The notes below the pieces were generated by a model that was given only the letters and a program-made list of their open reading frames with translations, was not told the origin of the DNA and made no database searches. Shown here one piece after another: positions 1 through 48,642 of a stretch of DNA of 64,000 bases. Every line of letters begins with the position of its first letter. Position 1 is the first letter of the stretch. The position numbers and the translations under genes were made by a program. This stretch comes from Liolophura sinensis (lineage: Eukaryota): contig NC_088300.1 of NCBI RefSeq assembly GCF_032854445.1, positions 74,512,302 to 74,576,301 on the forward strand, in the 5' to 3' direction.

Positions 1-545
1 TGCACTACGGCGTTGTTCCATTCAACTTGCCTAAGCATATCCGATATTCTTTTCTGCGCTGTCTTTTTGTCACAAGTCAGGAAAAGACACATTGAGAACT
101 GGAGGTGGTACTTGTAGCATTATAAACATACTTAATTTAAGAGTCCAATTCGACCGTTTTATGTAATGTGCCAAAATACACCTTACAAAGTACATGTATC
201 AATTTGATTTACTTCTTCATATCAAACATCAAAGACTACCATCCAGCTGCTAAATCATTCTCTGAAAATCTAGTCCAGACAAAGAGAAATTACTTACCAA
301 TTATTTTTTAGCAGTGAGAAAAATTTTCTCTTCTGTGTAGGCCACCGGCCACGCAGCAGGGATCTGACTTCGGCAAATCATCATAGAAGTAATGAAGATC
401 CATGCTCACCGCATTTATTTGAGAAGGTCTTCATCGTATGATTACCTTTCTCACAAGCACTAATCGTAACAAGTCGCTCACCTTCTAGGGCACAGGTCGC
501 ACAACATCAAACGGTTCTGTGAGAGTGAGTAGAAAATCTCTAGCA

Positions 546-553
546 TATATAAA
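546..553 (+). promoter_or_regulatory. TATA box (TATATAAA) 87 bp upstream of the unit ATG. It recurs every 1891 bp (2437, 4328, ...). Predicted TSS is about 575-585.
   Basis: gcaTATATAAAtcc lies about 30 bp upstream of caggtaccatatcc and then the ATG at 640. The motif is conserved in every unit, with single-base variants such as cacatataa in a few. Confidence 0.5.
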
Positions 554-639
554 TCCTTTTTCAAACTTGCAGGTACCATATCCAATCTATCACACAGTCC
601 AAGCATAGTCGACAATAATTTCCATTGATTCAACTCAGA

Positions 640-1233
640 ATGGATGTAGAAAGAATGGCCGCACTGCTCAGAGAAAATTTACTTCTTCATGACGCCGCTC
701 TCCGCAAAATTCAATTGCTCGGTATGTTCCCTTACTAAACTTGTACTTGCGTTGCATGAGTTTGTTTTAGGAGAATGCGCATGTTGTCTTAGCATTAACT
801 GTATCTTATACCATTCTTTTATATTTTTTCAGAACAAAGACAAGAGGCTACTGAACGACGAATAAGAGCAGCAACATCCAACGGGCATACACCATGCCAC
901 GAACTGCTCCTTCTGCAAAAACACATTCTTGCCGATACCAAAGCCTTGTACCAGCATTACCGACAGGAGAAATGGGATGAAGTTCAACGCGTGGCAGCCA
1001 GAGTCTTACAAACCAGCCAGGAAGACAGCGACGATGAGGACATGGGGGAGGTATTAATAAGTGTCGATGATGATAATGATGATGATGATCAATATTTTGA
1101 TGAAGGTGACCACAATTCTGTTGACGACAGCCAATCTACCACTCATCCACAGGCCTTTGACAGCACCGCCATGCATAGTTTTTCCCGTTTTACACGAGAT
1201 TTTTACATATCTTCAACTCGACAAGATAACTAA
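640..1233 (+). CDS. Array gene copy 1. It has two exons (640-721, 833-1233) and a 111-nt GT-AG intron (722-832), and encodes a 160-aa coiled-coil protein with an acidic tail (E variant, DEGDH).
   Basis: ATG at 640. Exon 1 is 82 nt and ends ...CAATTGCTCG|gtatgt. The acceptor is ttttttcag|AACAAAG. Splicing keeps the frame (G+AA=Glu) and runs into listed ORF 946..1233. The stop is TAA at 1231. Protein: [160 protein letters not shown]. Confidence 0.6.
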
Positions 1234-1313
1234 ATTGTTATTTCACCAATGTCACGTTTTTCTTTCCATCATTCTTTCTCCATCGCACTGTGCTATGTAT
1301 GGTTTATTGGCCA

Positions 1314-1319
1314 AATAAA
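1314..1319 (+). terminator. AATAAA polyadenylation signal 81 bp downstream of the unit stop codon. It recurs every 1891 bp.
   Basis: ggccAAATAAAaaactattttatc follows the TAA at 1231-1233. It sits downstream of every copy. Confidence 0.5.
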
Positions 1320-2530: not shown

Positions 2531-3124
2531 ATGGATGTAGAAAGAATGGCCGCACTGCTCAGAGAAAATTTACTTCTTCATGACGCCGCTCTCCGCAAAA
2601 TTCAATTGCTCGGTATGTTCCCTTACTAAACTTGTACTTGCGTTCCATGAGTTTGTTTTAGGAGAATGCGCATGTTGTCTTAGCATTAACTGTATCTTAT
2701 ACCATTCTTTTATATTTTTTCAGAACAAAGACAAGAGGCTACTGAACGACGAATAAGAGCAGCAACATCCAACGGGCATACACCATGCCACGAACTGCTC
2801 CTTCTGCAGAAACACATTCTTGCCGATACCAAAGCCTTGTACCAGCATTACCGACAGGAGAAATGGGATGAAGTTCAACGCGTGGCAGCCAGAGTCTTAC
2901 AAACCAGCCAGGAAGACAGCGACGATGAGGACATGGGGGAGGTATTAATAAGTGTCGATGATGATAATGATGATGATGATCAATATTTTGATGAAGGTGA
3001 CCACAATTCTGTTGACGACAGCCAATCTACCACTCATCCACAGGCCTTTGACAGCACCGCCATGCATAGTTTTTCCCGTTTTACACGAGATTTTTACATA
3101 TCTTCAACTCGACAAGATAACTAA
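2531..3124 (+). CDS. Array gene copy 2 (exons 2531-2612, 2724-3124), intact, E variant.
   Basis: Same structure as copy 1, shifted by 1891 bp. ATG at 2531 was checked in the sequence. Confidence 0.6.
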
Positions 3125-4421
3125 ATTGTTATTTCACCAATGTCACGTTTTTCTTTCCATCATTCTTTCTCCATCGCACTGTGCTATGTATGGTTTATTG
3201 GCCAAATAAAAAACTATTTTACCACCTGAATACAGTCCATACCTTTGCCTCATGTCTGTATTATATTGAAAAGAAACATACATGCCAATTTCTCATAAAA
3301 CAGTTCTACTTCTCGTATCCGAAAATATCGTTTTATATATGGATGTTTTAACAAATTAACAACAAAACCTTACATCTTGTCACAACTCTGTCTTAAGTAG
3401 CACTGGAAAACGCCCAGAAAGACTATGTAATACAAAATCCTATCTCGAACAAGCACAGTTTGGGCCTAAACAACTGCAAATCTTATCGCACACATGTGTT
3501 GTGCCTGTTACGCTTCATACTTATCAAATTTTCACTTTTGCAAATTTCATTTAGCCGTACTGACGAATATCTAAATCATATTGGCTGAAAAGAGTTAGCC
3601 TCTGTTTAGTTCACATTACAACAATTAACGGGTACAATTTTCAAGTACTATTAAAACTTACATAACCGCACTTGAAATATACAAACTCTGCATCACCATT
3701 ATTGCGCACAGTGAAATGTACCTGCATGCCAAACCTCCCCAGTAAAAGCCTTAAAAATCTTCTCTCTTCAACTTAGTCTGGCTGCACTACGGCGTTGTTC
3801 CATTCAACTTGCCTAAGCATATCCGATATTCTTTTCTGCGCTGTCTTTTTGTCACAAGTCAGGAAAAGACACATTGAGAACTGGAGGTGGTACTTGTAGC
3901 ATTATAAACATACTTAATTTAAGAGTCCAATTCGACCGTTTTATGTAATGTGCCAAAATACACCTTACAAAGTACATGTATCAATTTGATTTACTTCTTC
4001 ATATCAAACATCAAAGACTACCATCCAGCTGCTAAATCATTCTCTGAAAATCTAGTCCAGACAAAGAGAAATTACTTACCAATTATTTTTTAGCAGTGAG
4101 AAAAATTTTCTCTTCTGTGTAGGCCACCGGCCACGCAGCAGGGATCTGACTTCGGCAAATCATCATAGAAGTAATGAAGATCCATGCTCACCGCATTTAT
4201 TTGAGAAGGTCTTCATCGTATGATTACCTTTCTCACAAGCACTAATCGTAACAAGTCGCTCACCTTCTAGGGCACAGGTCGCACAACATCAAACGGTTCT
4301 GTGAGAGTGAGTAGAAAATCTCTAGCATATATAAATCCTTTTTCAAACTTGCAGGTACCATATCCAATCTATCACACAGTCCAAGCATAGTCGACAATAA
4401 TTTCCATTGATTCAACTCAGA

Positions 4422-5015: not shown

Positions 5016-6312
5016 ATTGTTATTTCACCAATGTCACGTTTTTCTTTCCATCATTCTTTCTCCATCGCACTGTGCTATGTATGGTTTATTGGCCAAATAA
5101 AAAACTATTTTATCACCTGAATACAGTCCATACCTTTGCCTCATGTCTGTATTATATTGAAAAGAAACATACATGCCAATTTCTCACAAAACTGTTCTGC
5201 TTCTCGTATCCGAAAATATCGTTTTATATATGGATGTTTTAACAAATTAACAACAAAACCTTACATCTTGTCACAACTCTGTCTTAAGTAGCACTGGAAA
5301 ACGCCCAGAAAGACTATGTAATACAAAATCCTATCTCGAACAAGCACAGTTTGGGCCTAAACAACTGCAAATCTTATCGCACACATGTGTTGTGCCTGTT
5401 ACGCTTCATACTTATCAAATTTTCACTTTTGCAAATTTCATTTAGCCGTACTGACGAATATCTAAATCATATTGGCTGAAAAGAGTTAGCCTCTGTTTAG
5501 TTCACATTACAACAATTAACGGGTACAATTTTCAAGTACTAGTAAAACTTACATAACCGCACTTGAAATATACAAAATCTACATCACCATTTTTGCGCAC
5601 AGTGAAATGTACCTGCATGCCAAACCTCCCCAGTAAAAGCCTTAAAAATCTTCTCTCTTGAACTTAGTCTGGCTGCACTACGGCGTTGTTCCATTCAACT
5701 TGCCTAAGCATATCCGATATTCTTTTCTGCGCTGTCTTTTCGTCACAAGTCAGGCAAAGACACATTGAGAACTGGAGGTGGTACTTGTAGCATTATAAAC
5801 ATACTTAATTTAAGAGTCCAATTCGACCGTTTTATGTAATGTGCCAAAATACACCTTACAAAGTACATGTATTAATCTGATTTACTTCTTCATATCAAAC
5901 ATCAGAGACTACCATCCAGCTGCTAAATCATTCTCTGAAAATCTAGTCCAGACAAAGAGAAATTACTTACCAATTATTTTTTAGCAATGAGAAAAATTTT
6001 CTCTTCTGTGTAGGCCACCGGCCACGCAGCAGGGATCTGACTTCGGCAAATCATCATAGAAGTAATGAAGATCCATGCTCACCGCATTTATTTGAGAAGG
6101 TCTTCATCGTATGATTACCTTTCTCACAAGCACTAATCGTAACAAGTCGCTCACCTTCTAGGGCACAGGTCGCACAACATCAAACGGTTCTGTGAGAGTG
6201 AGTAGAAAATCTCTAGCATATATAAATCCTTTCTCAAACTTGCAGGTACCATATCCAATCTATCACACAGTCCAAGCATAGTCGACAATAATTTCCATTG
6301 ATTCAACTCAGA

Positions 6313-6906
6313 ATGGATGTAGAAAGAATGGCCGCACTGCTCAGAGAAAATTTACTTCTTCATGACGCCGCTCTCCGCAAAATTCAATTGCTCGGTATGT
6401 TCCCTTACTAAACTTGTACTTGCGTTCCATGAGTTTGTTTTAGGAGAATGCGCATGTTGTCTTAGCATTAACTGTATCTTATACCATTCGTTTATATTTT
6501 TTCAGAACAAAGACAAGAGGCTACTGAACGACGAATAAGAGCAGCAACATCCAACGGGCATACACCATGCCACGAACTGCTCCTTCTGCAGAAACACATT
6601 CTTGCCGATACCAAGGCCTTGTACCAGCATTACCGACAGGAGAAATGGGATGAAGTTCAACGCGTGGCAGCCAGAGTCTTACAAACCAGCCAGGAAGACA
6701 GCGACGATGAGGACATGGGGGAGGTATTAATAAGTGTCGATGATGATAATGATGATGATGATCAATATTTTGATGACGGTGACCACAATTCTGTTGACGA
6801 CAGCCAATCTACCACTCATCCACAGGCCTTTGACAGCACCGCCATGCATAGTTTTTCCCGTTTTACACGAGATTTTTACATATCTTCGACTCGACAAGAT
6901 AACTAA
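6313..6906 (+). CDS. Array gene copy 4 (exons 6313-6394, 6506-6906), intact, D variant.
   Basis: Periodic copy with ATG, intron and stop all conserved. Confidence 0.6.
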
Positions 6907-11985: not shown

Positions 11986-12579
11986 ATGGATGTAGAAAGA
12001 ATGGCCGCACTGCTCAGAGAAAATTTACTTCTTCATGACGCCGCTCTCCGCAAAATTCAATTGCTCGGTATGTTCCCTTACTAAACTTGTACTTGCGTTC
12101 CATGAGTTTGTTTTAGGAGAATGCGCATGTTGTCTTAGCATTAACTGTATCTTATACCATTCTTTTATATTTTTTCAGAACAAAGACAAGAGGCTACTGA
12201 ACGACGAATAAGAGCAGCAACATCCAACGGGCATACACCATGCCACGAACTGCTCCTTCTGCAGAAACACATTCTTGCCGATACCAAAGCCTTGTACCAG
12301 CATTACCGACAGGAGAAATGGGATGAAGTTCAACGCGTGGCAGCCAGAGTCTTACAAACCAGCCAGGAAGACAGCGACGATGAGGACATGGGGGAGGTAT
12401 TAATAAGTGTCGATGATGATAATGATGATGATGATCAATATTTTGATGAAGGTGACCACAATTCTGTTGACGACAGCCAATCTACCACTCATCCACAGGC
12501 CTTTGACAGCACCGCCATGCATAGTTTTTCCCGTTTTACACGAGATTTTTACATATCTTCAACTTGACAAGATAACTAA
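11986..12579 (+). CDS. Array gene copy 7. A CGA to TGA change at 12565-12567 removes the last 4 residues (R157 to stop). The copy is probably still functional.
   Basis: The ORF track shows 91 aa ending ...ISST at 12567 instead of 95 aa. The sequence reads tca act TGA caa gat aac taa. Confidence 0.5.
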
Positions 12580-16361: not shown

Positions 16362-17658
16362 ATTGTTATTTCACCAATGTCACGTTTTTCTTTCCATCAT
16401 TCTTTCTCCATCGCACTGTGCTATGTATGGTTTATTGGCCAAATAAAAAACTATTTTATCACCTGAATACAGTCCATACCTTTGCCTCATGTCTGTATTA
16501 TATTGAAAAGAAACATACATGCCAATTTCTCACAAAACTGTTCTGCTTCTCGTATCCGAAAATATCGTTTTATATATGGATGTTTTAACAAATTAACAAC
16601 AAAACCTTACATCTTGTCACAACTCTGTCTTAAGTAGCACTGGAAAACGCCCAGAAAGACTATGTAATACAAAATCCTATCTCGAACAAGCACAGTTTGG
16701 GCCTAAACAACTGCAAATCTTATCGCACACATGTGTTGTGCCTGTTACGCTTCATACTTATCAAATTTTCACTTTTGCAAATTTCATTTAGCCGTACTGA
16801 CGAATATCTAAATCATATTGGCTGAAAAGAGTTAGCCTCTGTTTAGTTCACATTACAACAATTAACGGGTACAATTTTCAAGTACTAGTAAAACTTACAT
16901 AACCGCACTTGAAATATACAAAATCTGCATCACCATTTTTGCGCACAGTGAAATGTACCTGCATGCCAAACCTCCCCAGTAAAAGCCTTAAAAATCTTCT
17001 CTCTTCAACTTAGTCTGGCTGCACTACGGCGTTGTTCCATTCAACTTGCCTAAGCATATCCGATATTCTTTTCTGCGCTGTCTTTTTGTCACAAGTCAGG
17101 AAAAGACACATTGAGAACTGGAGGTGGTACTTGTAGCATTATAAACATACTTCATTTAAGAGTCCAATTCGACCGTTTTATGTAATGTGCCAAAATACAC
17201 CTTACAAAGTACATGTATCAATTTGATTTACTTCTTCATATCAAACATCAAAGACTACCATCCAGCTGCTAAATCATTCTCTGAAAATCTAGTCCAGACA
17301 AAGAGAAATTACTTACCAATTATTTTTTAGCAGTGAGAAAAATTTTCTCTTCTGTGTAGGCCACCGGCCACGCAGCAGGGATCTGACTTCGGCAAATCAT
17401 CATAGAAGTAATGAACATCCATGCTCACCGCATTTATTTGAGAAGGTCTTCATCGTATGATTACCTTTCTCACAAGCACTAATCGTAACAAGTCGCTCAC
17501 CTTCTAGGGCACAGGTCGCACAACATCAAACGGTTCTGTGAGAGTGAGTAGAAAATCTCTAGCATATATAAATCCTTTTTCAAACTTGCAGGTACCATAT
17601 CCAATCTATCACACAGTCCAAGCATAGTCGACAATAATTTCCATTGATTCAACTCAGA

Positions 17659-18252
17659 ATGGATGTAGAAAGAATGGCCGCACTGCTCAGAGAAAATTTA
17701 CTTCTTCATGACGCCGCTCTCCGCAAAATTCAATTGCTCGGTATGTTCCCTTACTAAACTTGTACTTGCGTTGCATGAGTTTGTTTTAGGAGAATACGCA
17801 TGTTGTCTTAGCATTGACTGTATCTTATACCATTCTTTTATATTTTTTCAGAACAAAGACAAGAGGCTACTGAACGACGAATAAGAGCAGCAGCATCCAA
17901 CGGGCATACACCATGCCACGAACTGCTCCTTCTGCAGAAACACATTCTTGCCGATACCAAGGCCTTGTACCAGCATTACTGACAGGAGAAATGGGATGAA
18001 GTTCAACGCGTGGCAGCCAGAGTCTTACAAACCAGCCAGGAAGACAGCGACGATGAGGACATGGGGGAGGTATTAATAAGTGTCGATGATGATAATGATG
18101 ATGATGATCAATATTTTGATGAAGGTGACCACAATTCTGTTGACGACAGCCAATCTACCACTCATCCACAGGCCTTTGACAGCACCGCCATGCATAGTTT
18201 TTCCCGTTTTACACGAGATTTTTACATATCTTCAACTCGACAAGATAACTAA
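17659..18252 (+). pseudogene. Array gene copy 10. A nonsense mutation (R71 CGA to TGA at 17980-17982) truncates the protein to 70 aa.
   Basis: The sequence reads cag cat tac TGA cag gag. The ORF track shows only the 80-aa downstream fragment starting at 18010. Confidence 0.65.
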
Positions 18253-29598: not shown

Positions 29599-30895
29599 AT
29601 TGTTATTTCACCAATGTCACGTTTTTCTTTCCATCATTCTTTCTCCATCGCACTGTGCTATGTATGGTTTATTGGCCAAATAAAAAACTATTTTATCACC
29701 TGAATACAGTCCATACCTTTGCCTCATGTCTGTATTATATTGAAAAGAAACATACATGCCAATTTCTCACAAAACAGTTCTACTTCTCGTATCCGAAAAT
29801 ATCGTTTTATATATGGATGTTTTAACAAATTAACAACAAAACCTTACATCTTGTCACAACTCTGTCTTAAGTAGCACTGGAAAACGCCCAGAAAGACTAT
29901 GTAATACAAAATCCTATCTCGAACAAGCACAGTTTGGGCCTAAACAACTGCAAATCTTATCGCACACATGTGTTGTGCCTGTTACGCTTCATACTTATCA
30001 AATTTTCACTTTTGCAAATTTCATTTAGCCGTACTGACGAATATCTAAATCATATTGGCTGAAAAGAGTTAGCCTCTGTTTAGTTCACATTACAACAATT
30101 AACGGGTACAATTTTCAAGTACTAGTAAAACTTACATAACCGCACTTGAAATATACAAAATATGCATCACCTTTATTGCGCACAGTGAAATGTACCTGCA
30201 TGCCAAACCTCCCCAGTAAAAGCCTTAAAAATCTTCTCTCTTCAACTTAGTCTGGCTGCACTACGGCGTTGTTCCATTCAACTTGCCTAAGCATATCCGA
30301 TATTCTTTTCTGCGCTGTCTTTTTGTCACAAGTCAGGCAAAGACACATTGAGAACTGGAGGTGGTACTTGTAGCATTATAAACATACTTAATTTAAGAGT
30401 CCAATTCGACCGTTTTATGTAATGTGCCAAAATACACCTTACAAAGTACATGTATCAATTTGATTTACTTCTTCATATCAAACATCAAAGACAACCATCC
30501 AACTGCTAAATCATTCTCTGAAAATCTAGTCCAGACAAAGAGAAATTACTTACCAATTATTTTTTAGCAATGAGAAAAATTTTCTCTTCTGTGTAGGCCA
30601 CCGGCCACGCAGCAGGGATCTGACTTCGGCAAATCATCATAGAAGTAATGAACATCCATGCTCACCGCATTTATTTGAGAAGGTCTTCATCGTATGATTA
30701 CCTTTCTCACAAGCACTAATCGTAACAAGTCGCTCACCTTCTAGGGCACAGGTCGCACAACATCAAACGGTTCTGTGAGAGTGAGTAGAAAATCTCTAGC
30801 ATATATAAATCCTTTTTCAAACTTGCAGGTACCATATCCAATCTATCACACAGTCCAAGCATAGTCGACAATAATTTCCATTGATTCAACTCAGA

Positions 30896-31489
30896 ATGGA
30901 TGTAGAAAGAATGGCCGCACTGCTCAGAGAAAATTTACTTCTTCATGACGCCGCTCTCCGCAAAATTCAATTGCTCGGTATGTTCCCTTACTAAACTTGT
31001 ACTTGCGTTCCATGAGTTTGTTTTAGGAGAATGCGCATGTTGTCTTAGCATTAACTGTATCTTATACCATTCTTTTATATTTTTTCAGAACAAAGACAAG
31101 AGGCTACTGAACGACGAATAAGAGCAGCAACATCCAACGGGCATACACCATGCCACGAACTGCTCCTTCTGCAGAAACACATTCTTGCCGATACCAAAGC
31201 CTTGTACCAGCATTACCGACAGGAGAAATGGGATGAAGTTCAACGCGTGGCAGCCAGAGTCTTACAAACCAGCCAGGAAGACAGCGACGATGAGGACATG
31301 GGGGAGGTATTAATAAGTGTCGATGATGATAATGATGATGATGATCAATATTTTGATGACGGTGACCACAATTCTGTTGACGACAGCCAATCTACCACTC
31401 ATCCACAGGCCTTTGACAGCACCGCCATGCATAGTTTTTCCCGTTTTACACGAGATTTTTACATATCTTCAACTCGACAAGATAACTAA
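30896..31489 (+). CDS. Array gene copy 17, intact, D variant.
   Basis: Periodic copy with conserved signals. Confidence 0.6.
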
Positions 31490-32786
31490 ATTGTTATTTC
31501 ACCAATGTCACGTTTTTCTTTCCATCATTCTTTCTCCATCGCACTGTGCTATGTATGGTTTATTGGCCAAATAAAAAACTATTTTATCACCTGAATACAG
31601 TCCATACCTTTGCCTCATGTCTGTATTATATTGAAAAGAAACATACATGCCAATTTCTCACAAAACAGTTCTCCTTCTCGTATCCGAAAATATCGTTTTA
31701 TATATGGATGTTTTAACAAATTAATAACAAAACCTTACATCTTGTCACAACTCTGTCTTAAGTAGCACTCAAAAAAGCCCAGAAAGACTATGTAATACAA
31801 AATCCTATCTCGAACAAGCACAGTTTGGGCCTAAACAACTGCAAATCTTATCGCACACATGTGTTGTGCCTGTTACGCTTCATACTTATCAAATTTTCAC
31901 TTTTGCAAATTTCATTTAGCCGTACTGACGAATATCTAAATCATATTGGCTGAAAAGAGTTAGCCTCTGTTTAGTTCACATTACAACAATTAACGGGTAC
32001 AATTTTCAAGTACTAGTAAAACTTACATAACCGCACTTGAAATATACAAAATCTGCATCACCATTTTTGCGCACAGTGAAATGTACCTGCATGCCAAACC
32101 TCCCCAGTAAAAGCCTTAAAAATCTTCTCTCTTCAACTTAGTCTGGCTGCACTACGGCGTTGTTCCATTCAACTTGCCTAAGCATATCCGATATTCTTTT
32201 CTGCGCTGTCTTTTTGTCACAAGTCAGGAAAAGACACATTGAGAACTGGAGGTGGTACTTGTAGCATTATAAACATACTTAATTTAAGAGTCCAATTCGA
32301 CCGTTTTATGTAATGTGCCAAAATACACCTTACAAAGTACATGTATCAATTTGATTTACTTCTTCATATCAAACATCAAAGACTACCATCCAGCTGCTAA
32401 ATCATTCTCTGAAAATCTAGTCCAGACAAAGAGAAATTACTTACCAATTATTTTTTAGCAGTGAGAAAAATTTTCTCTTCTGTGTAGGCCACCGGCCACG
32501 CAGCAGGGATCTGACTTCGGCAAATCATCATAGAAGTAATGAACATCCATGCTCACCGCATTTATTTGAGAAGGTCTTCATCGTATGATTACCTTTCTCA
32601 CAAGCACTAATCGTAACAAGTCGCTCACCTTCTAGGGCACAGGTCGCACAACATCAAACGGTTCTGTGAGAGTGAGTAGAAAATCTCTAGCATATATAAA
32701 TCCTTTTTCAAACTTGCAGGTACCATATCCAATCTATCACACAGTCCAAGCATAGTCGACAATAATTTCCATTGATTCAACTCAGA

Positions 32787-33380
32787 ATGGATGTAGAAAG
32801 AATGGCCGCACTGCTCAGAGAAAATTTACTTCTTCATGACGCCGCTCTCCGCAAAATTCAATTGCTCGGTATGTTCCCTTACTAAACTTGTACTTGCGTT
32901 GCATGAGTTTGTTTTAGGAGAATGCGCATGTTGTCTTAGCATTGACTGTATCTTATACCATTCTTTTATATTTTTTCAGAACAAAGACAAGAGGCTACTG
33001 AACGACGAATAAGAGCAGCAGCATCCAACGGGCATACACCATGCCACGAACTGCTCCTTCTGCAGAAACACATTCTTGCCGATACCAAGGCCTTGTACCA
33101 GCATTACTGACAGGAGAAATGGGATGAAGTTCAACGCGTGGCAGCCAGAGTCTTACAAACCAGCCAGGAAGACAGCGACGATGAGGACATGGGGGAGGTA
33201 TTAATAAGTGTCGATGATGATAATGATGATGATGATCAATATTTTGATGAAGGTGACCACAATTCTGTTGACGACAGCCAATCTACCACTCATCCACAGG
33301 CCTTTGACAGCACCGCCATGCATAGTTTTTCCCGTTTTACACGAGATTTTTACATATCTTCAACTCGACAAGATAACTAA
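32787..33380 (+). pseudogene. Array gene copy 18. Same R71 nonsense (TGA at 33108-33110).
   Basis: The sequence reads gcattacTGAcagg. The ORF track shows the 80-aa fragment from 33138. Confidence 0.65.
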
Positions 33381-34677
33381 ATTGTTATTTCACCAATGTC
33401 ACGTTTTTCTTTCCATCATTCTTTCTCCATCGCACTGTGCTATGTATGGTTTATTGGCCAAATAAAAAACTATTTTATCACCTGAATACAGTCCATACCT
33501 TTGCCTCATGTCTGTATTATATTGAAAAGAAACATACATGCCAATTTCTCACAAAACTGTTCTGCTTCTCGTATCCGAAAATATCGTTTTATATATGGAT
33601 GTTTTAACAAATTAACAACAAAACCTTACATCTTGTCACAACTCTGTCTTAAGTAGCACTGGAAAACGCCCAGAAAGACTATGTAATACAAAATCCTATC
33701 TCGAACAAGCACAGTTTGGGCCTAAACAACTGCAAATCTTATCGCACACATGTGTTGTGCCTGTTACGCTTCATACTTATCAAATTTTCACTTTTGCAAA
33801 TTTCATTTAGCCGTACTGACGAATATCTAAATCATATTGGCTGAAAAGAGTTAGCCTCTGTTTAGTTCACATTACAACAATTAACGGGTACAATTTTCAA
33901 GTACTATTAAAACTTACATAACCGCACTTGAAATATACAAAATCTGCATCACCATTTTTGCGCACAGTGAAATGTACCTGCATGCCAAACCTCCCCAGTA
34001 AAAGCCTTAAAAATCTTCTCTCTTCAACTTAGTCTGGCTGCACTACGGCGTTGTTCCATTCAACTTGCCTAAGCATATCCGATATTCTTTTCTGCGCTGT
34101 CTTTTTGTCACAAGTCAGGCAAAGACACATTGAGAACTGGAGGTGGTACTTGTAGCATTATAAACATACTTAATTTAAGAGTCCAATTCGACCGTTTTAT
34201 GTAATGTGCCAAAATACACCTTACAAAGTACATGTATTAATCTGATTTACTTCTTCATATCAAACATCAGAGACTACCATCCAGCTGCTAAATCATTCTC
34301 TGAAAATCTAGTCCAGACAAAGAGAAATTACTTACCAATTATTTTTTAGCAATGAGAAAAATTTTCTCTTCTGTGTAGGCCACCGGCCACGCAGCAGGGA
34401 TCTGACTTCGGCAAATCATCATAGAAGTAATGAAGATCCATGCTCACCGCATTTATTTGAGAAGGTCTTCATCGTATGATTACCTTTCTCACAAGCACTA
34501 ATCGTAACAAGTCGCTCACCTTCTAGGGCACAGGTCGCACAACATCAAACGGTTCTGTGAGAGTGAGTAGAAAATCTCTAGCATATATAAATCCTTTCTC
34601 AAACTTGCAGGTACCATATCCAATCTATCACACAGTCCAAGCATAGTCGACAATAATTTCCATTGATTCAACTCAGA

Positions 34678-35271
34678 ATGGATGTAGAAAGAATGGCCGC
34701 ACTGCTCAGAGAAAATTTACTTCTTCATGACGCCGCTCTCCGCAAAATTCAATTGCTCGGTATGTTCCCTTACTAAACTTGTACTTGCGTTGCATGAGTT
34801 TGTTTTAGGAGAATGCGCATGTTGTCTTAGCATTAACTGTATCTTATACCATTCTTTTATATTTTTTCAGAACAAAGACAAGAGGCTACTGAACGACGAA
34901 TAAGAGCAGCAACATCCAACGGGCATACACCATGCCACGAACTGCTCCTTCTGCAGAAACACATTCTTGCCGATACCAAAGCCTTGTACCAGCATTACCG
35001 ACAGGAGAAATGGGATGAAGTTCAACGCGTGGCAGCCAGAGTCTTACAAACCAGCCAGGAAGACAGCGACGATGAGGACATGGGGGAGGTATTAATAAGT
35101 GTCGATGATGATAATGATGATGATGATCAATATTTTGATGACGGTGACCACAATTCTGTTGACGACAGCCAATCTACTACTCATCCACAGGCCTTTGACA
35201 GCACCGCCATGCATAGTTTTTCCCGTTTTACACGAGATTTTTACATATCTTCAACTCGACAAGATAACTAA
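34678..35271 (+). CDS. Array gene copy 19, intact, D variant.
   Basis: Periodic copy with conserved signals. Confidence 0.6.
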
Positions 35272-36568
35272 ATTGTTATTTCACCAATGTCACGTTTTTC
35301 TTTCCATCATTCTTTCTCCATCGCACTGTGCTATGTATGGTTTATTGGCCAAATAAAAAACTATTTTATCACCTGAATACAGTCCATACCTTTGCCTCAT
35401 GTCTGTATTATATTGAAAAGAAACATACATGCCAATTTCTCACAAAACAGTTCTCCTTCTCGTATCCGAAAATATCGTTTTATATATGGATGTTTTAACA
35501 AATTAACAACAAAACCTTACATCTTGTCACAACTCTGTCTTAAGTAGCACTGGAAAACGCCCAGAAAGACTATGTAATACAAAATCCTATCTCGAACAAG
35601 CACAGTTTGGGCCTAAACAACTGCAAATCTTATCGCACACATGTGTTGTGCCTGTTACGCTTCATACTTATCAAATTTTCACTTTTGCAAATTTCATTTA
35701 GCCGTACTGACGAATATCTAAATCATATTGGCTGAAAAGAGTTAGCCTCTGTTTAGTTCACATTACAACAATTAACGGGTACAATTTTCAAGTACTAGTA
35801 AAACTTACATAACCGCACTTGAAATATACAAAATATGCATCACCTTTATTGCGCACAGTGAAATGTACCTGCATGCCAAACCTCCCCAGTAAAAGCCTTA
35901 AAAATCTTCTCTCTTCAACTTAGTCTGGCTGCACTACGGCGTTGTTCCATTCAACTTGCCTAAGCATATCCGATATTCTTTTCTGCGCTGTCTTTTTGTC
36001 ACAAGTCAGGCAAAGACACATTGAGAACTGGAGGTGGTACTTGTAGCATTATAAACATACTTAATTTAAGAGTCCAATTCGACCGTTTTATGTAATGTGC
36101 CAAAATACACCTTACAAAGTACATGTATTAATCTGATTTACTTCTTCATATCAAACATCAGAGACTACCATCCAGCTGCTAAATCATTCTCTGAAAATCT
36201 AGTCCAGACAAAGAGAAATTACTTACCAATTATTTTTTAGCAATGAGAAAAATTTTCTCTTCTGTGTAGGCCACCGGCCACGCAGCAGGGATCTGACTTC
36301 GGCAAATCATCATAGAAGTAATGAAGATCCATGCTCACCGCATTTATTTGAGAAGGTCTTCATCGTATGATTACCTTTCTCACAAGCACTAATCGTAACA
36401 AGTCGCTCACCTTCTAGGGCACAGGTCGCACAACATCAAACGGTTCTGTGAGAGTGAGTAGAAAATCTCTAGCATATATAAATCCTTTCTCAAACTTGCA
36501 GGTACCATATCCAATCTATCACACAGTCCAAGCATAGTCGACAATAATTTCCATTGATTCAACTCAGA

Positions 36569-37162
36569 ATGGATGTAGAAAGAATGGCCGCACTGCTCAG
36601 AGAAAATTTACTTCTTCATGACGCCGCTCTCCGCAAAATTCAATTGCTCGGTATGTTCCCTTACTAAACTTGTACTTGCGTTCCATGAGTTTGTTTTAGG
36701 AGAATGCGCATGTTGTCTTAGCATTAACTGTATCTTATACCATTCTTTTATATTTTTCCACAACAAAGACAAGAGGCTACTGAACGACGAATAAGAGCAG
36801 CAACATCCAACGGGCATACACCATGCCACGAACTGCTCCTTCTGCAGAAACACATTCTTGCCGATACCAAGGCCTTGTACCAGCATTACCGACAGGAGAA
36901 ATGGGATGAAGTTCAACGCGTGGCAGCCAGAGTCTTACAAACCAGCCAGGAAAACAGCGACGATGAGGACATGGGGGAGGTATTAATAAGTGTCGATGAT
37001 GATAATGATGATGATGATCAATATTTTGATGAAGGTGACCACAATTCTGTTGACGACAGCCAATCTACTACTCATCCACAGGCCTTTGACAGCACCGCCA
37101 TGCATAGTTTTTCCCGTTTTACACGAGATTTTTACATATCTTCAACTCGACAAGATAACTAA
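36569..37162 (+). pseudogene. Array gene copy 20. The intron acceptor is destroyed (AG to AC at 36760-36761; ttttttcagAAC becomes tttttccacAAC). It also has a D to N substitution.
   Basis: Aligning it to unit 1 at 824-835 shows the AG is lost. No in-frame AG lies nearby. Exon 2 is otherwise open, so the ORF track still lists it. Confidence 0.5.
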
Positions 37163-42836: not shown

Positions 42837-44133
42837 ATTGTTATTTCACCAATGTCACGTTTTTCTTTCCATCATTCTTTCTCCATCGCACTGTGCTATG
42901 TATGGTTTATTGGCCAAATAAAAAACTATTTTATCACCTGAATACAGTCCATACCTTTGCCTCATGTCTGTATTATATTGAAAAGAAACATACATGCCAA
43001 TTTCTCACAAAACAGTTCTACTTCTCGTATCCGAAAATATCGTTTTATATATGGATGTTTTAACAAATTAACAACAAAACCTTACATCTTGTCACAACTC
43101 TGTCTTAAGTAGCACTGGAAAACGCCCAGAAAGACTATGTAATACAAAATCCTATCTCGAACAAGCACAGTTTGGGCCTAAACAACTGCAAATCTTATCG
43201 CACACATGTGTTGTGCCTGTTACGCTTCATACTTATCAAATTTTCACTTTTGCAAATTTCATTTAGCCGTACTGACGAATATCTAAATCATATTGGCTGA
43301 AAAGAGTTAGCCTCTGTTTAGTTCACATTACAACAATTAACGGGTACAATTTTCAAGTACTAGTAAAACTTACATAACCGCACTTGAAATATACAAAATC
43401 TGCATCACCATTTTTGCACACAGTGAAATGTACCTGCATGCCAAACCTCCCCAGTAAAAGCCTTAAAAATCTTCTCTCTTCAACTGAGTCTGGCTGCACT
43501 ACGGCGTTGTTCCATTCAACTTGCCTAAGCATATCCGATATTCTTTTCTGCGCTGTCTTTTTGTCACAAGTCAGGAAAAGACACATTGAGAACTGGAGGT
43601 GGTACTTGTAGCATTATAAACATACTTAATTTAAGAGTCCAATTCGACCGTTTTATGTAATGTGCCAAAATACACCTTACAAAGTACATGTATCAATTTG
43701 ATTTACTTCTTCATATCAAACATCAAAGACTACCATCCAGCTGCTAAATCATTCTCTGAAAATCTAGTCCAGACAAAGAGAAATTACTTACCAATTATTT
43801 TTTAGCAGTGAGAAAAATTTTCTCTTCTGTGTAGGCCACCGGCCACGCAGCAGGGATCTGACTTCGGCAAATCATCATAGAAGTAATGAAGATCCATGCT
43901 CACCGCATTTATTTGAGAAGGTCTTCATCGTATGATTACCTTTCTCACAAGCACTAATCGTAACAAGTCGCTCACCTTCTAGGGCACAGGTCGCACAACA
44001 TCAAACGGTTCTGTGAGAGTGAGTAGAAAATCTCTAGCATATATAAATCCTTTTTCAAACTTGCAGGTACCATATCCAATCTATCACACAGTCCAAGCAT
44101 AGTCGACAATAATTTCCATTGATTCAACTCAGA

Positions 44134-44727
44134 ATGGATGTAGAAAGAATGGCCGCACTGCTCAGAGAAAATTTACTTCTTCATGACGCCGCTCTCCGCA
44201 AAATTCAATTGCTCGGTATGTTCCCTTACTAAACTTGTACTTGCGTTCCATGAGTTTGTTTTAGGAGAATGCGCATGTTGTCTTAGCATTAACTGTATCT
44301 TATACCATTCTTTTATATTTTTTCAGAACAAAGACAAGAGGCTACTGAACGACGAATAAGAGCAGCAACATCCAACGGGCATACACCATGCCACGAACTG
44401 CTCCTTCTGCAGAAACACATTCTTGCCGATACCAAGGCCTTGTACCAGCATTACCGACAGGAGAAATGGGATGAAGTTCAACGCGTGGCAGCCAGAGTCT
44501 TACAAACCAGCCAGGAAGACAGCGACGATGAGGACATGGGGGAGGTATTAATAAGTGTCGATGATGATAATGATGATGATGATCAATATTTTGATGACGG
44601 TGACCACAATTCTGTTGACGACAGCCAATCTACCACTCATCCACAGGCCTTTGACAGCACCGCCATGCATAGTTTTTCCCGTTTTACACGAGATTTTTAC
44701 ATATCTTCAACTCGACAAGATAACTAA
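44134..44727 (+). CDS. Array gene copy 24, intact, D variant.
   Basis: Periodic copy with conserved signals. Confidence 0.6.
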
Positions 44728-46024
44728 ATTGTTATTTCACCAATGTCACGTTTTTCTTTCCATCATTCTTTCTCCATCGCACTGTGCTATGTATGGTTTA
44801 TTGGCCAAATAAAAAACTATTTTATCACCTGAATACAGTCCATACCTTTGCCTCATGTCTGTATTATATTGAAAAGAAACATACATGCCAATTTCTCACA
44901 AAACAGTTCTACTTCTCGTATCCGAAAATATCGTTTTATATATGGATGTTTTAACAAATTAACAACAAAACCTTACATCTTGTCACAACTCTGTCTTAAG
45001 TAGCACTGGAAAACGCCCAGAAAGACTATGTAATACAAAATCCTATCTCGGACAAGCACAGTTTGGGCCTAAACAACTGCAAATCTTATCGCACACATGT
45101 GTTGTGCCTGTTACGCTTCATACTTATCAAATTTTCACTTTTGCAAATTTCATTTAGCCGTACTGACGAATATCTAAATCATATTGGCTGAAAAGGGTTA
45201 GCCTCTGTTTAGTTCACATTACAACAATTAACGGGTACAATTTTCAAGTACTAGTAAAACTTACATAACCGCACTTGAAATATACAAAATCTGCATCACA
45301 ATTTTTGCACACAGTGAAATGTACCTGCATGCCAAACCTCCCCAGTAAAAGCCTTAAAAATCTTCTCTCTTCAACTTAGTCTGGCTGCACTACGGCGTTG
45401 TTCCATTCAACTTGCCTAAGCATATCCGATATTCTTTTCTGCGCTGTCTTTTTGTCACAAGTCAGGAAAAGACACATTGAGAACTGGAGGTGGTACTTGT
45501 AGCATTATAAACATACTTAATTTAAGAGTCCAATTCGACCGTTTTATGTAATGTGCCAAAATACACCTTACAAAGTACATGTATCAATTTGATTTACTTC
45601 TTCATATCAAACATCAAAGACTACCATCCAGCTGCTAAATCATTCTCTGAAAATCTAGTCCAGACAAAGAGAAATTACTTACCAATTATTTTTTAGAAGT
45701 GAGAAAAATTTTCTCTTCTGTGTAGGCCACCGGCCACGCAGCAGGGATCTGACTTCGGCAAATCATCATAGAAATAATGAAGATCCATGTTCACCGCATT
45801 TTTTTGAGAAGGTCTTCATCGTATGATTACCTTTCTCACAAGCACTAATCGTAACAAGTCGCTCACCTTCTAGGGCACAGGTCGCACAACATCAAACGGT
45901 TCTGTGAGAGTGAGTAGAAAATCTCTAGCATATATAAATCCTTTTTCAAACTTGCAGGTACCATATCCAATCTATCACACAGTCCAAGCATAGTCGACAA
46001 TAATTTCCATTGATTCAACTCAGA

Positions 46025-46618
46025 ATGGATGTAGAAAGAATGGCCGCACTGCTCAGAGAAAATTTACTTCTTCATGACGCCGCTCTCCGCAAAATTCAAT
46101 TGCTCGGTATGTTCCCTTACTAAACTTGTACTTGCGTTCCATAAGTTTGTTTTAGGAGAATGCGCATGTTGTCTTAGCATTAACTGTATCTTATACCATT
46201 CTTTTATATTTTTTCAGAACAAAGACAAGAGGCTACTGAACGACGAATAAGAGCAGCAACATCCAACGGGCATACACCATGCCACGAACTGCTCCTTCTG
46301 CAGAAACACATTCTTGCCGATACCAAGGCCTTGTACCAGCATTACCGACAGGAGAAATGGGACGAAGTTCAACGCGTGGCAGCCAGAGTCTTACAAACCA
46401 GCCAGGAAGACAGCGACGATGAGGACATGGGGGAGGTATTAATAAGTGTCGATGATGATAATGATGATGATGATCAATATTTTGATGACGGTGACCACAA
46501 TTCTGTTGACGACAGCCAATCTACCACTCATCCACAGGCCTTTGACAGCACCGCCATGCATAGTTTTTCCCGTTTTACACGAGATTTTTACATATCTTCA
46601 ACTCGACAAGATAACTAA
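46025..46618 (+). CDS. Array gene copy 25, intact, D variant. It is the last complete copy.
   Basis: ATG at 46025 checked. Stop at 46616-46618. AATAAA follows. Confidence 0.6.
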
Positions 46619-47442
46619 ATTGTTATTTCACCAATGTCACGTTTTTCTTTCCATCATTCTTTCTCCATCGCACTGTGCTATGTATGGTTTATTGGCCAAA
46701 TAAAAAACTATTTTATCACCTGAATACAGTCCATACCTTTGCCTCATGTCTGTATTATATTGAAAAGAAACATACATGCCAATTTCTCACAAAACAGTTC
46801 TGCTTCTCGTATCCGAAAATGTCGTTTTATATATGGATGTTTTAACAAATTAACAACAAAACCTTACATCTTGTCACAACTCTGTCTTAAGTAGCACTGG
46901 AAAACGCCCAGAAAGACTATGTAATACAAAATCCTATCTCGAACAAGCACAGTTTGGGCCTAAACAACTGCAAATCTTATCGCACACATGTGTTGTGCCG
47001 GTTACGCTTCATACTTATCAAATTTTCACTTTTGCAAATTTCATTTAGCCGTACTGACGAATATCTAAATCATATTGGCTGAAAAGAGTTAGCCTCTGTT
47101 TAGTTCACATTACAACAATTAACGGGTACAATTTTCAAGTACTAGTAAAACTTACATAACCGCACTTGAAATATACAAAATCTGCATCACCATTTTTGCA
47201 CACAGTGAAATGTACCTGCATGCCAAACCTCCCTAGTAAAAGCCTTAGAGATCTTCTCTCTTTAACTCAATCTGTCTGCACTACGGCGTTGTTCCATTCA
47301 ACTTGCCTAAGCATATCCGATGTTCTTTTCTGTGGTGTCTTTTTGTCACAAGTCAGGAAAAGACACATTGAGAACTGGAGGTGGTACTTGTAGCATTATA
47401 AACATACTTCATTTAAGAGTCCATTTCGACCGTTTTATGTAA

Positions 47443-47868
47443 CTATTTTATCACCTGAATACAGTCCATACCTTTGCCTCATGTCTGTATTATATTGAAA
47501 AGAAACATACATGCCAATTTCTCATAAAACAGTTCTGCTTCTCGTATCCGAAAATATCGTTTTATATATGGATGTTTTAACAAATTAACAACAAAACCTT
47601 ACATAATCTGCATCACCATTTTTGCGCACAGTGGAATGTACCTGCATGCCAAACCTCCCCAGTAAAAGCCTTAGAGATCTTCTCTCTTCAACTCAATCTG
47701 TCTGCACTACGGCGTTGTTCCATTCAACTTGCCTAAGCATATCCGATGTTCTTTTCTGTGCTGTCTTTTTGTCACAAGTCAGGAAAAGACACATTGAGAA
47801 CTGGAGGTGGTACTTGTAGCATTATAAACATACTTCATTTAAGAGTCCAATTCGACCGTTTTATGTAA
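47443..47868 (+). repeat. Rearranged partial-unit insertion of 426 bp near the array edge. A post-polyA segment is fused to a second copy of the spacer segment.
   Basis: Junctions are ttttatgtaa|ctattttatcacc at about 47440 and aaccttacat|aatctgcatcacc at about 47605. The final ATG at 48342 is 426 bp beyond the expected 47916. Confidence 0.6.
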
Positions 47869-48341
47869 TGTGCCAAAATACACCTTACAAAGTACATGTA
47901 TCAATTTGATTTACTTCTTCATATCAAACATCAAAGACTACCATCCAACTGCTAAATCATTCTCTGAAAATCTAGTCCAGACAAAGAGAAATTACTTACC
48001 AATTATTTTTTAGCAATCAGAAGAATTCTCTCTTCTGTGTAGGCCACCGGCCACGCAGCAGGGATTTGACTTTGGCAAAATATCATAGAAGTAATGAAGA
48101 TCCATGCTCACCGCATTTATTTGAGAAGGTCTTCATCGTATGATTACCTTTCTCACAAGCACTAATCGTAACAAGTCGCTCACCTTCTAGGGCACAGGTC
48201 GCACAACATCAAACGGTTCTGTGAGAGTGAGTAGAAAATCTCTAGCATATATAAATCCTTTTTCAAACTTGCAGGTACCATATCCAATCTATCACACAGT
48301 CCAAGCATAGTCGACAATAATTTCCATTGATTCAACTCAGA

Positions 48342-48642
48342 ATGGATGTAGAAAGAATGGCCGCACTGCTCAGAGAAAATTTACTTCTTCATGACGCCGC
48401 TCTCCGCAAAATTCAATTGCTCGGTATGTTCCCTTACTAAACTTGTACTTGCGTTCCATGAGTTTGTTTTAGGAGAATGCGCATGTTGTCTTAGCATTAA
48501 CCGTATCTTATATCATTCTTTTATATTTTTTCAGAACAAAGACAAGAGGCTACTGAACGACGAATAAGAGCAGCAACATCCAACGGGCATACACCATGCC
48601 ACGAACTGCTCCTTCTGCAGAAACACATTCTTGCCGATACCA
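48342..48642 (+). pseudogene. Truncated 26th copy. Exon 1 (48342-48423), the intron (48424-48534) and the first 108 nt of exon 2 are present. The copy is cut at ...GCCGATACCA by the (TA)n palindrome.
   Basis: Homology to the unit ends at 48642. The unit is more diverged than internal ones (ccgtatcttatatcattc). No stop or polyA signal belongs to the unit. Confidence 0.7.

Follow-up and report, generated by a model that had tools for sequence, protein, structure and literature searches.

A tandem array of a two-exon gene encoding a predicted helical-hairpin protein in Liolophura sinensis

What is repeated every 1.9 kb along a stretch of Liolophura sinensis DNA, and why is it kept there in so many nearly identical copies? 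Apart from the histones and some families that are linked to sex chromosomes or driven by conflict, tandem arrays of complete intron-containing protein genes are uncommon. The window (the whole 64,000-nucleotide stretch that was analysed) had been described in an initial annotation as carrying just such an array, with at least 25 copies of a small gene at a 1,891-bp period, open at the 5′ end and reaching position 48642. We used the spacing of a 30-mer anchor to count the units. The anchor recurs every 1,891 bp (1,892 bp once) from position 1 to position 47277, giving 25 full head-to-tail units of 1,891 bp each, with the exception of unit 22 (1,892 bp). This agrees with the copy number and period first given, and because the array leaves the window at its 5′ end, 25 units is a lower bound. 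Tandem Repeats Finder (TRF), run with a longest period of 500, missed the array solely because of that limit.

The extent of the array needs some correction. Full units stop at position 47276, and the last 1,366 bp consist of an internally deleted unit that has no gene and a truncated unit that keeps the promoter, exon 1 and the intron but breaks off 108 nt into exon 2 (Table 1). The truncated unit adjoins unique flanking sequence, and the array end abuts an (AT)50 palindrome. Much retroelement debris and one SINE are found in the flank.

Table 1 Features of the array and of its individual units, in window coordinates
Feature	Position	Strand	Detail or basis
Full units (n = 25)	1–47276	+	Anchor spacing; consensus and differences; array continues past the 5′ end of the window
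Promoter and 5′ UTR, unit 1	413–639	+	blastn; upstream comparison of 9 loci; offsets constant across units
TATATAAA box, unit 1	546–553	+	87–94 nt upstream of ATG
Exon 1, coding part, unit 1	640–721	+	82 nt (MDVERMAALLRENLLLHDAALRKIQLL + 1 nt); ATG at 640
Phase-1 GT-AG intron, unit 1	722–832	+	111 nt; consensus GTATGT...TTTTTCAG
Exon 2, coding part, unit 1	833–1233	+	401 nt, including TAA at 1231–1233
AATAAA, unit 1	1314–1319	+	81 nt past the stop; intact in 25/25 copies
R157* (CGA>TGA), copy 7	12565–12567	+	
R71* (CGA>TGA), copy 10	17980–17982	+	
R71* (CGA>TGA), copy 15	27435–27437	+	
R71* (CGA>TGA), copy 18	33108–33110	+	
Acceptor change TTCAG to CCAC, copy 20	36758–36761	+	AG to AC; AG lost
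Internally deleted unit	47277–47702	+	426 bp; unit positions 1–166, 1321–1484 and 1789–1889; blastn of consensus against array end
Truncated terminal unit	47703–48642	+	Unit positions 1–940; blastn of consensus against array end
Near-perfect palindrome	48643–48776	.	134 nt; GGCAAGGGAATATGG-(AT)50-CCATATTCCCTTGCC; 3′ array boundary

Gene model and variation among the copies

The consensus unit has the proposed architecture, in which a TATA box and ATG are followed by two coding exons separated by a GT-AG intron, a stop codon and AATAAA. Joining the exons at the predicted junction, where CAAAATTCAATTGCTCG meets AACAAAGACAAGAGGC, yields a 483-nt coding sequence that specifies 160 amino acids and a TAA stop, and unspliced read-through of the consensus unit encounters stops. 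The 5′ and 3′ untranslated regions would be approximately 60 and 85 nt long. The TATA element takes the variant form CACATATAA in copies 2, 9, 11 and 16. The sequence supports interpretation of the unit as a protein gene of RNA-polymerase-II type that contains an intron and has been amplified in tandem.

A complete open reading frame, splice sites, TATA box and AATAAA are present in 20 of the 25 copies, and the remaining five are disabled. The claim that every unit carries a complete gene thus holds for the consensus and for these 20 copies, but is overstated as a description of all units because one-fifth of them are disabled. Specifically, units 10, 15 and 18, which all derive from one duplicated block, carry the R71* change, R157* is found in copy 7, and the splice acceptor of copy 20 is lost. 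Both types of nonsense change are CpG transitions, one of which spread through block duplication.

Mean pairwise identity among the 25 units is 99.16%, and even the worst pair (33 differences in 1,891 positions) is 98.25% identical, in line with the earlier figure of more than 98 percent. Individual units depart from the consensus at 4–21 sites, and unit 25 forms a divergent edge with 18–33 differences from the other full units. The 70 variable sites of the array are shared between units in a structured, non-random manner that includes block duplications of two or three adjacent units, wherein unit 10 equals unit 15 and close similarity links units 11 and 16, 12 and 17, 10 and 18, and 11 and 19. 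Both this degree of identity and the duplication of blocks of several units fit concerted evolution, as had been suggested.

Exon 1 is invariant across all 25 copies, and the intron is the most variable part of the unit (9 of 111 sites, 8%). Coding-sequence variants within the array comprise six synonymous and six non-synonymous changes, two of the latter being nonsense, and the lower density of variants in coding than in non-coding positions within the array is not significant (Fisher p = 0.07). Given these counts, the within-array data alone do not prove current constraint.

Homologues and the predicted protein

An exhaustive HMMER search and a profile search located homologues in Mytilus and in several marine lineages represented by metagenomes or SRA data. 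The initial annotation had stated that the product is not a known family. This is correct in that the 160-residue protein matches nothing in Pfam or PDB and no informative fold, but homologues exist, including two in M. galloprovincialis annotated as ‘uncharacterized protein’ (LOC143045536 and LOC143073461) and another in M. edulis. Aligned by hhalign, the window subfamily and the Mytilus subfamily match over 84 ungapped columns with a probability of 97.3% and an E value of 1.9e-11. A collection of 15 billion proteins does not contain the exact spliced product. Homologues of the gene are known, yet the family has no name, domain or known function.

Cross-species comparison also supports the predicted two-exon model. 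In three metagenome or SRA homologues (L004, L005 and L007), exon 1 is likewise 82 nt long, the donor reads GTAAGT, and an intron of 112–123 nt interrupts the same codon in the same phase; LOC143073461, as annotated by NCBI, is split at the same junction, between ..NLL and E. The intron position is kept in L004, L005, L007 and L012, and other homologues lack exactly this intron and are colinear with the spliced product. All homologous loci have a TATA-like box 75–105 nt before the ATG (nine loci compared upstream). For the closest homologue (L009), positions 413–639 are the sole alignable non-coding stretch (68% identity, blastn), wherein the best-conserved shared block is GTGAGTAGAAAA..AGCATATATAAA. 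Conservation between species is limited to the coding sequence, and spacers are unalignable.

In the AF2 model a hairpin of two helices is accompanied by one short helix, with pLDDT above 90 for residues 1–90, helices at residues 3–44 and 47–95, and a disordered tail. The antiparallel hairpin, predicted with confidence, covers 95 residues (pI 9) and is followed by a disordered tail rich in D, E and S (pI 4). No signal peptide or transmembrane segment is predicted in the 160-residue protein, which has no hydrophobic segment and would be soluble. In family alignments the tail evolves fast and the hairpin is conserved. Hairpin codons show pN values of 0.22–0.42 against pS values of 0.57–0.89, which are saturated, and dN/dS is 0.13–0.30 where estimable. 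As judged from these codon comparisons, the hairpin is the conserved, selectively constrained part of the protein.

Two short elements of the tail are shared between species. The motif E-(V/M)-L-I-S-V-D-D occurs in six of seven non-Mytilus members, inside the acidic tract of low pLDDT, whereas the Mytilus subfamily lacks both the motif and the tract. A C-terminal patch, [ST]-x-D-F-x-x-x-S-R, is kept across the family. SUMO-interacting motifs have a hydrophobic core of the form psi-psi-x-psi with acidic or phospho-serine flanks, and lie in disordered regions. By resemblance to this consensus, the E-V-L-I-S-V-D-D motif looks SUMO-interaction-like.

Relatives of the gene include both arrayed and low-copy cases. 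At least two other lineages carry the gene in head-to-tail units of about 1.68 kb: a 146-nt overlap at 95.9% identity between L001 and L002 gives a period of 1,687 bp, and a 30-nt terminal overlap in L007 gives 1,680 bp. L003 has a perfect terminal overlap of 127 nt, indicating a tandem unit. A Mytilus locus (L010) holds three copies within 9.5 kb. The large array is therefore not universal in the family, as copy number in Mytilus is low (1–3 per locus). Homologues share the intron position and often lie in tandem as well, which marks the gene as part of a genuine multicopy family and not as a junk satellite.

Comparison with known repeated genes

The units were compared with several established classes of repeat. 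As had been claimed, they are not satellite, rRNA, snRNA or histone units, and Pfam shows no histone or other domain in the product. For structured RNAs (5S rRNA, snRNA, SL RNA and tRNA), cmscan against Rfam at the permissive threshold of E ≤ 1 over positions 43000–48642 found no match inside units 23–26, and ARAGORN found no tRNA. A non-coding satellite is rejected by the conserved spliced open reading frame of 160 codons with homologues.

Histone repeats encode histone-fold or H1 proteins from intronless genes that end in a 3′ stem-loop instead of a poly(A) signal. The units carry neither a Pfam histone domain nor an Rfam histone 3′ element, and have an intron and AATAAA. The organization nevertheless resembles that of tandem histone units such as the sea-urchin early histone repeats and the Drosophila histone locus, in that each short head-to-tail unit combines a promoter and an entire gene, tens of near-identical copies evolve in concert, the arrayed state recurs across species, and bulk supply in a short time is presumed. 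The present protein differs in lacking a histone fold and in being acidic rather than basic, and each unit holds one gene rather than a quintet.

A second comparison is with coding macrosatellites and ampliconic arrays, which include TSPY (20-kb units), DUX4 in D4Z4 (3.3 kb) and Stellate/Su(Ste) in Drosophila (about 1.2–2.8 kb), and which typically have germline or early-embryo roles. Like these, the array has tens of ORF-bearing units, higher-order block structure and intact copies alongside disabled ones, and it shows the constant unit length, high identity, complete open reading frame (20 of 25 copies) and protein under selection expected of a coding macrosatellite. It bears no sequence relation to them, as its protein has no CK2-beta, homeobox or NAP domain in Pfam, and it is not known to lie in a sex-chromosome or conflict setting. 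Conservation of its hairpin also reaches across far deeper divergence than such families usually show. Stellate encodes a CK2-beta-like protein and is paired with an antisense or piRNA-producing array. Identity with this system is rejected, given that no CK_II_beta match and no inverted or antisense copies are found in the window. The Su(Ste) array is a topic of one preprint (bioRxiv 10.64898/2026.06.30.735624).

The Mytilus genes share the homologous hairpin, intron position and phase, TATA spacing, the C-terminal ..DF...SRD motif and local tandem duplication. In contrast, identity to them is only 22–25%, their tail is rich in S, T and P rather than poly-acidic, and they are few and dispersed on different chromosomes inside the introns of other genes. 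ESCRT-III/Snf7 proteins are built on four or five core helices. Membership in this family (PF03357) is rejected, as there is no Pfam match or other sequence signal, the best PDB profile match (Vps24) has an E value of 5.5, and helices alpha 3–5 of ESCRT-III are absent. No sequence signal links the protein to Vipp1 either, and any helical hairpin would show the likeness seen to ESCRT-III, Vipp1, prefoldin beta or the ING N-terminal domain.

Explanations for the array

The most likely reading, which we hold to be probable, is that of a dosage array homogenized by unequal exchange. Many identical promoters would fire in parallel to produce a burst of one small mRNA, and selection would act on how many copies work rather than on individual ones. 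We propose that the five disabled copies are tolerated for this reason. Unequal crossing-over and gene conversion would keep identity high, leaving as traces the block duplications and the decayed, truncated edge. The protein might be an intracellular, probably nuclear, adaptor that the germ line or cleavage-stage embryos require in large amounts, a role we put forward tentatively and with low confidence. Its hairpin would oligomerize or dock onto a partner, and its acidic tail, rich in CK2 sites, would use the SIM-like VLISVDD to bind SUMO or else bind basic chromatin proteins.

Repeat maskers treat near-identical 1.9-kb units as satellite, so annotations will probably miss the gene. If expressed, the array offers a tractable case for the origin and homogeneity of non-histone dosage arrays, and a route to the role of a previously unseen protein with a helical hairpin and acidic tail in molluscs. 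If not expressed, it documents a gene turning into a satellite.

A more specific proposition, which we regard as rather unlikely, is that the family is anciently molluscan or even more widely lophotrochozoan, a long-lived, histone-like dosage array whose units of about 1.7–1.9 kb were kept across lineages with saturated synonymous sites. Embryos or germ cells would need large amounts of the product, for instance if it were a chromatin factor that binds SUMO or histones and serves the onset of zygotic transcription or sperm chromatin remodelling. Repeat masking, by hiding such genes from annotation, would then explain why the family has been overlooked so far.

An ampliconic conflict locus, amplified independently in several lineages in a genetic conflict such as meiotic drive or its suppression and acting through the protein, small RNAs or both, is unlikely in our estimation. 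Examples of such loci are Stellate/Su(Ste), Dox and Slx/Sly. Copy number does vary sharply, from at least 25 here to the arrays in two other lineages and the few copies per Mytilus locus, and the unalignable spacers are compatible with independent amplifications; tolerance of disabled copies and a fast-evolving tail beside a conserved hairpin also suit this account. However, hairpin dN/dS at saturated synonymous divergence is unlike that of typical fast-evolving drive genes, the 25 units show no antisense promoter, inverted copy or transposable-element insertion from which hairpin or antisense RNA might arise, and three lineages have units of similar length (1,891, 1,687 and 1,680 bp).

We consider it improbable that the array is a decaying satellite derived from a once-functional gene, with copies that are now passengers and similar through recent amplification only. 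The disabled fifth of the copies, the 6:6 ratio of coding changes and the non-significant difference in variant density would be expected of such decay. Against this, 20 copies keep every gene signal, exon 1 is invariant while 8% of intron sites vary, the nonsense changes are CpG transitions of which one was spread by block duplication, and arrays in other species encode full-length proteins under purifying selection. Moreover, random changes in coding sequence should be synonymous in roughly one quarter of cases, a share exceeded by the 6 of 12 found.

Expansion of a single or low-copy gene through long-read mis-assembly is highly improbable. Mis-joined reads could give identical units 10 and 15 and the near identity of units 10–12 to 15–17, but not readily the 70 variable sites with structured sharing, the unit with a 1-bp indel, or the progressively more divergent edge at unit 25 and the deleted and truncated units abutting unique flank; homologues in independent short-read assemblies also close on themselves as repeats of about 1.68 kb. 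Least credible is a gene of a mobile element or virus present as concatenated element copies: despite the retroelement-rich flank and homologues in many environmental assemblies, the unit has no terminal repeats, transposase, RT, Rep or other conserved ORF and no relatives in IMG/VR, INPHARED phage records or BFVD, and the Mytilus copies are ordinary chromosomal genes.

Organization of the tandem array

The period and units of the array were measured by script, and the results demonstrate a real array of gene-bearing units that is homogenised by block exchange and whose tandem arrangement recurs elsewhere in the gene family. A 30-nt anchor taken from window position 1 is found again at 1892, 3783 ... 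45386 and 47277, with a step of 1891 bp and a single exception of 1892 bp, and an additional match occurs at 47703. This spacing delimits 25 full units and places the start of the window within the array, which bears out the initial annotation's count of at least 25 units with an open 5′ end. TRF reported only an (AT)50 run in the window and missed the array because its period limit is 500. Both GC content (0.38–0.40) and skew (about −0.16) are uniform throughout the array and shift at its boundary.

Each unit differs from the majority consensus at 4–21 positions, with 70 variable positions altogether. Pairwise identity averages 99.16% and the farthest pair has 33 differences in 1891 sites, so the proposed identity of more than 98% holds. 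A difference matrix reveals unit pairs that are nearly or entirely identical: units 10 and 15 (no differences), 11 and 16 (one), 12 and 17 (two), 10 and 18 (three) and 11 and 19 (four). These pairs indicate that neighbouring units were duplicated in blocks of two to three, to sites at a distance of 5 and 8 units (17020–35929, units 10–19), and the nonsense mutation R71*, found in three units, was carried along by this block duplication.

Two main variant types (200/232 versus 204/314/560) are intermixed along the array, and differences grow slightly with distance, from 14.7 at lag 1 to about 17 at lag 10. The most divergent full unit is the last one (18–33 differences), beyond which lie deleted and then truncated units. 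Such a pattern is classically left by unequal exchange and conversion, with homogenisation weakening at the edges, a behaviour established for rDNA and satellites. Thus, the block duplications, interspersed variants and less homogenised edge sustain the earlier proposal of concerted evolution.

The array had also been described as reaching position 48642, which is accurate except for the last stretch, where a mini-unit that has lost the entire gene shows decay at the array edge and is followed by a truncated unit. An almost perfect palindrome adjoins the exact point of truncation inside exon 2, and could mark a breakpoint prone to hairpin formation or else a small insertion of the foldback or MITE-like kind.

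Features of the array and its right flank (window coordinates)
Feature	Position	Strand	Details
Full units (25)	1-47276		
R71*, copies 10, 15 and 18	17980, 27435, 33108		CGA>TGA
R157*, copy 7	12565		CGA>TGA
Acceptor AG lost, copy 20			
Mini-unit	47277-47702		426 bp; two internal deletions; pieces are unit positions 1-166, 1321-1484, 1789-1889
Terminal unit	47703-48642		cut at unit position 940, within exon 2
Palindrome	48643-48776		134 nt, almost perfect; GGCAAGGGAATATGG-(AT)50-CCATATTCCCTTGCC; right arm also given as CCATATTCCCTTGCC
tRNA-derived SINE-like element	about 49197-49560	-	tRNA-like head 49485-49556, Rfam tRNA 29.2 bits; (GAGT)n tail
Ty3/gypsy-type pol fragments	51208-52020	-	stop-broken; Integrase_H2C2 E 4.5e-9; RVT_1 E 1e-3, below cutoff
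Partial inverted copy of SINE-like element	52027-52132	+	106 nt, 92% complementary, 2.6 kb away
'skipping-rope' sRNA match, sub-threshold Rfam	57304-57414	-	31.3 bits versus gathering 36.7; E 8e-4
45-nt unit, two tandem copies	63744-63833		91% identity

A two-exon gene encoding a constrained protein

The consensus unit carries an ATG at unit position 640, an 82-nt exon 1, a 111-nt intron (GTATGT...TTTTTCAG) and a 401-nt exon 2 that ends in TAA. Joining the exons at the predicted junction (CAAAATTCAATTGCTCG/AACAAAGACAAGAGGC) gives a coding sequence (CDS) of 483 nt for a protein of 160 amino acids, and the unspliced frame meets stops at once. A TATA box (TATATAAA) lies 87–94 nt 5′ of the ATG and an AATAAA lies 81 nt 3′ of the stop codon. 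This layout agrees with the initial annotation, but the assertion that it is complete in every unit does not stand, as copy-by-copy inspection finds 20 of the 25 copies fully intact. AATAAA is unbroken in all copies, and the TATA variant CACATATAA is present in four.

Variable sites number 0 of 82 in exon 1, 9 of 111 in the intron, 11 of 401 in exon 2, 21 of 639 upstream and 29 of 658 downstream. Within the CDS, six variants are synonymous and six non-synonymous, and there are two nonsense types, each a CpG transition. Together with the CpG observed/expected ratio (0.78 for the unit versus 0.62 for the flank), these nonsense changes hint that the array undergoes some methylation in the germline, with CpG depletion below that of neighbouring repeats. 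No second gene or RNA was detected in the 1.1-kb spacer by checks for long open reading frames (ORFs) with homologues, tRNAs, Rfam families and internal repeats; the unit contains no Rfam family or tRNA, in line with its exclusion as an rRNA or snRNA unit.

A word-indexed search for homologues of the single protein returned no match, and the three protein variants that occur most often have no exact counterpart in a 15-billion-sequence collection. Homologues with E values from 9e-29 to 8e-4 emerged from an exhaustive HMMER search across 1.84 billion representatives, and a profile search added two Mytilus galloprovincialis 'uncharacterized proteins' (LOC143045536 and LOC143073461) and one Mytilus edulis protein. 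These named relatives suggest a molluscan origin for the window. Profile–profile comparison aligns the window and Mytilus subfamilies over 84 ungapped columns (probability 97.3%, E 1.9e-11). The product had been called no known family, which remains correct in that there is no accepted Pfam match but overlooks these homologues, including the annotated Mytilus proteins. Sub-threshold matches to Pfam DUF7529 (E 0.0035), DUF3686 and MVB12, each in one of eight members, were dismissed as acid-tract noise. Scans of JGI metagenome contigs and IMG/VR gave no confirmed relatives, a search of phage DNA gave none, and we found no account of the gene family or array in the searchable literature.

Homologue DNA was retrieved for comparison of gene structures. 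In three metagenome or SRA loci (L004, L005 and L007), the first coding exon measures 82 nt and is followed by an intron of 112–123 nt with a GTAAGT donor and a pyrimidine-rich CAG acceptor; this intron matches that of the array gene in codon and phase. One homologue, P0001, is given as 208 amino acids by the gene caller, which simply translated through the same intron in frame. The NCBI-annotated M. galloprovincialis gene LOC143073461 in L012 is split at the identical NLL/E junction; its exon 1 is longer by three codons, at 91 nt, and its intron measures 277 nt. Four further proteins (P0002, P0004, P0009 and P0012) have no intron and are colinear with the spliced array product, as precise loss of this intron predicts. 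On the strength of these comparisons, a two-exon protein gene is well supported.

Intron presence differs between members of the gene family (L009 792–1134; L001–L003; L010; L013). Retrocopying was rejected as a general origin of the intronless homologues, since L009, L010 and L013 retain an upstream TATA box and promoter similarity; intron loss in promoter-bearing copies fits better. A TATA-like box is located 75–105 nt 5′ of the ATG in nine of nine loci. L009, the closest relative, shares about 230 nt of promoter with the array at 68% identity, the strongest block being GTGAGTAGAAAA..AGCATATATAAA; it also has an internal deletion and a frameshift, and its KWDEVQR segment is gone.

Interspecies alignment by blastn and tblastx is confined to the CDS, and tblastx reveals no conservation outside it. 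For the 90 codons of the hairpin, the predicted N-terminal helical part of the protein, pN is 0.22–0.42 versus a saturated pS of 0.57–0.89, and dN/dS is 0.13–0.30 where estimable. At the level of aligned codons, the protein family is conserved and constrained.

The protein (18.6 kDa, pI 4.6) has a maximum Kyte–Doolittle 19-residue mean of 0.52 and, having no hydrophobic segment, should be neither secreted nor membrane-bound. AlphaFold2, given a 15-sequence family alignment, predicts an antiparallel hairpin of helices 3–44 and 47–95 that turns at a conserved N-G-H, with pLDDT values of 87–98 per 10-residue block over residues 1–90. The hairpin has a pI of 9.0 and carries the most conserved positions of the family, including K74-W75 in Y-R-Q-x-K-W-D/N-E/Q-V-Q. 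Residues 96–160 are predicted to form a tail that is disordered except for a single weak helix. This tail (pI 4.05, D/E at 22 of 70 residues) is variable but retains two islands, E-(V/M)-L-I-S-V-D-D in non-Mytilus members and, at the C terminus of nearly all members, the patch [ST]-x-D-F-x-x-x-S-R. Its psi-psi-x-psi core amid acidic and serine residues looks similar to the SUMO-interaction motifs of proteins such as PML or Daxx and may be a candidate motif of this kind.

Arrayed relatives and the proposed dosage reading

Homologue-bearing contigs are suspiciously unit-sized. The Tara Oceans contig L003 (PRJEB4352) is 1814 bp long and has a perfect terminal direct overlap of 127 nt. L001 and L002, from independent assemblies, are 1833 bp long with a terminal overlap of 146 nt at 95.9% identity, and this imperfect overlap points to two adjacent, slightly different copies, and thus to tandem repetition every 1687 bp, not to a circular molecule. 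For L007 (Logan, k = 31), the two ends overlap by 30 nt, so that the contig closes into a repeat with a 1680-bp period. In another Logan contig, L008, the Nextera transposase adapter occurs at 1–19 and 1229–1250 (AGATGTGTATAAGAGACAG, CTGTCTCTTATACACATCT), an untrimmed-read artefact.

In M. galloprovincialis, positions 10001–19537 of L010 (OZ263153.1) hold three intronless copies in 9.5 kb, with a distance of 2.6 kb between two of these copies. All three lie within an intron of a Sec7-domain gene, on the strand opposite to it. The other paralogues of this species are single and reside on different chromosomes, and the M. edulis homologue, at L013, likewise lies within a gene, in this case a Pecanex gene. 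Satellite arrays of 168–169 bp, which are typical of bivalves, occur near the L010 copies (2954–3770 and 5733–6415).

Local tandem repetition therefore recurs in the gene family, with large arrays in at least three lineages and similar unit lengths (1.68–1.89 kb). Because the spacers are unalignable between lineages, common descent of the arrays and repeated amplification are indistinguishable. Histones, TSPY, DUX4/D4Z4 and Stellate are likewise protein-coding genes in tandem arrays; set apart here are the unnamed gene family, the intron and the arrayed state across several lineages.

We infer that the array is a dosage device because its promoters are identical and parallel, about 20% dead copies are tolerated and arrays exist in several lineages. 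As a guess, the hairpin may dock or oligomerise, the acidic tail might bind SUMO or basic chromatin proteins, and the protein would be a nuclear adaptor demanded in bulk by germ cells or early embryos. It is unlikely that the array is instead an amplicon driven by conflict, whether or not small RNAs are involved, and decidedly improbable that it is a gene-derived satellite in decay. Mis-assembly has very little to recommend it, as the block duplications and the divergent, deleted and truncated edge units count against an artefact, and carriage as mobile-element cargo is more doubtful still. Expression evidence for histone-like bulk supply, or for a part in genetic conflict, would make the array of greater interest.

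DNA to the right of the array

Beyond the 3′ boundary of the array, the remaining 15 kb of the window consists of ordinary eukaryotic DNA that is rich in repeats, with no further copy of the gene. ARAGORN called no true tRNA at the SINE-like element. The integrase ORF of the pol fragments has no relatives by protein search of a 5.8-billion-cluster database, and the 'skipping-rope' match is probably due to chance.
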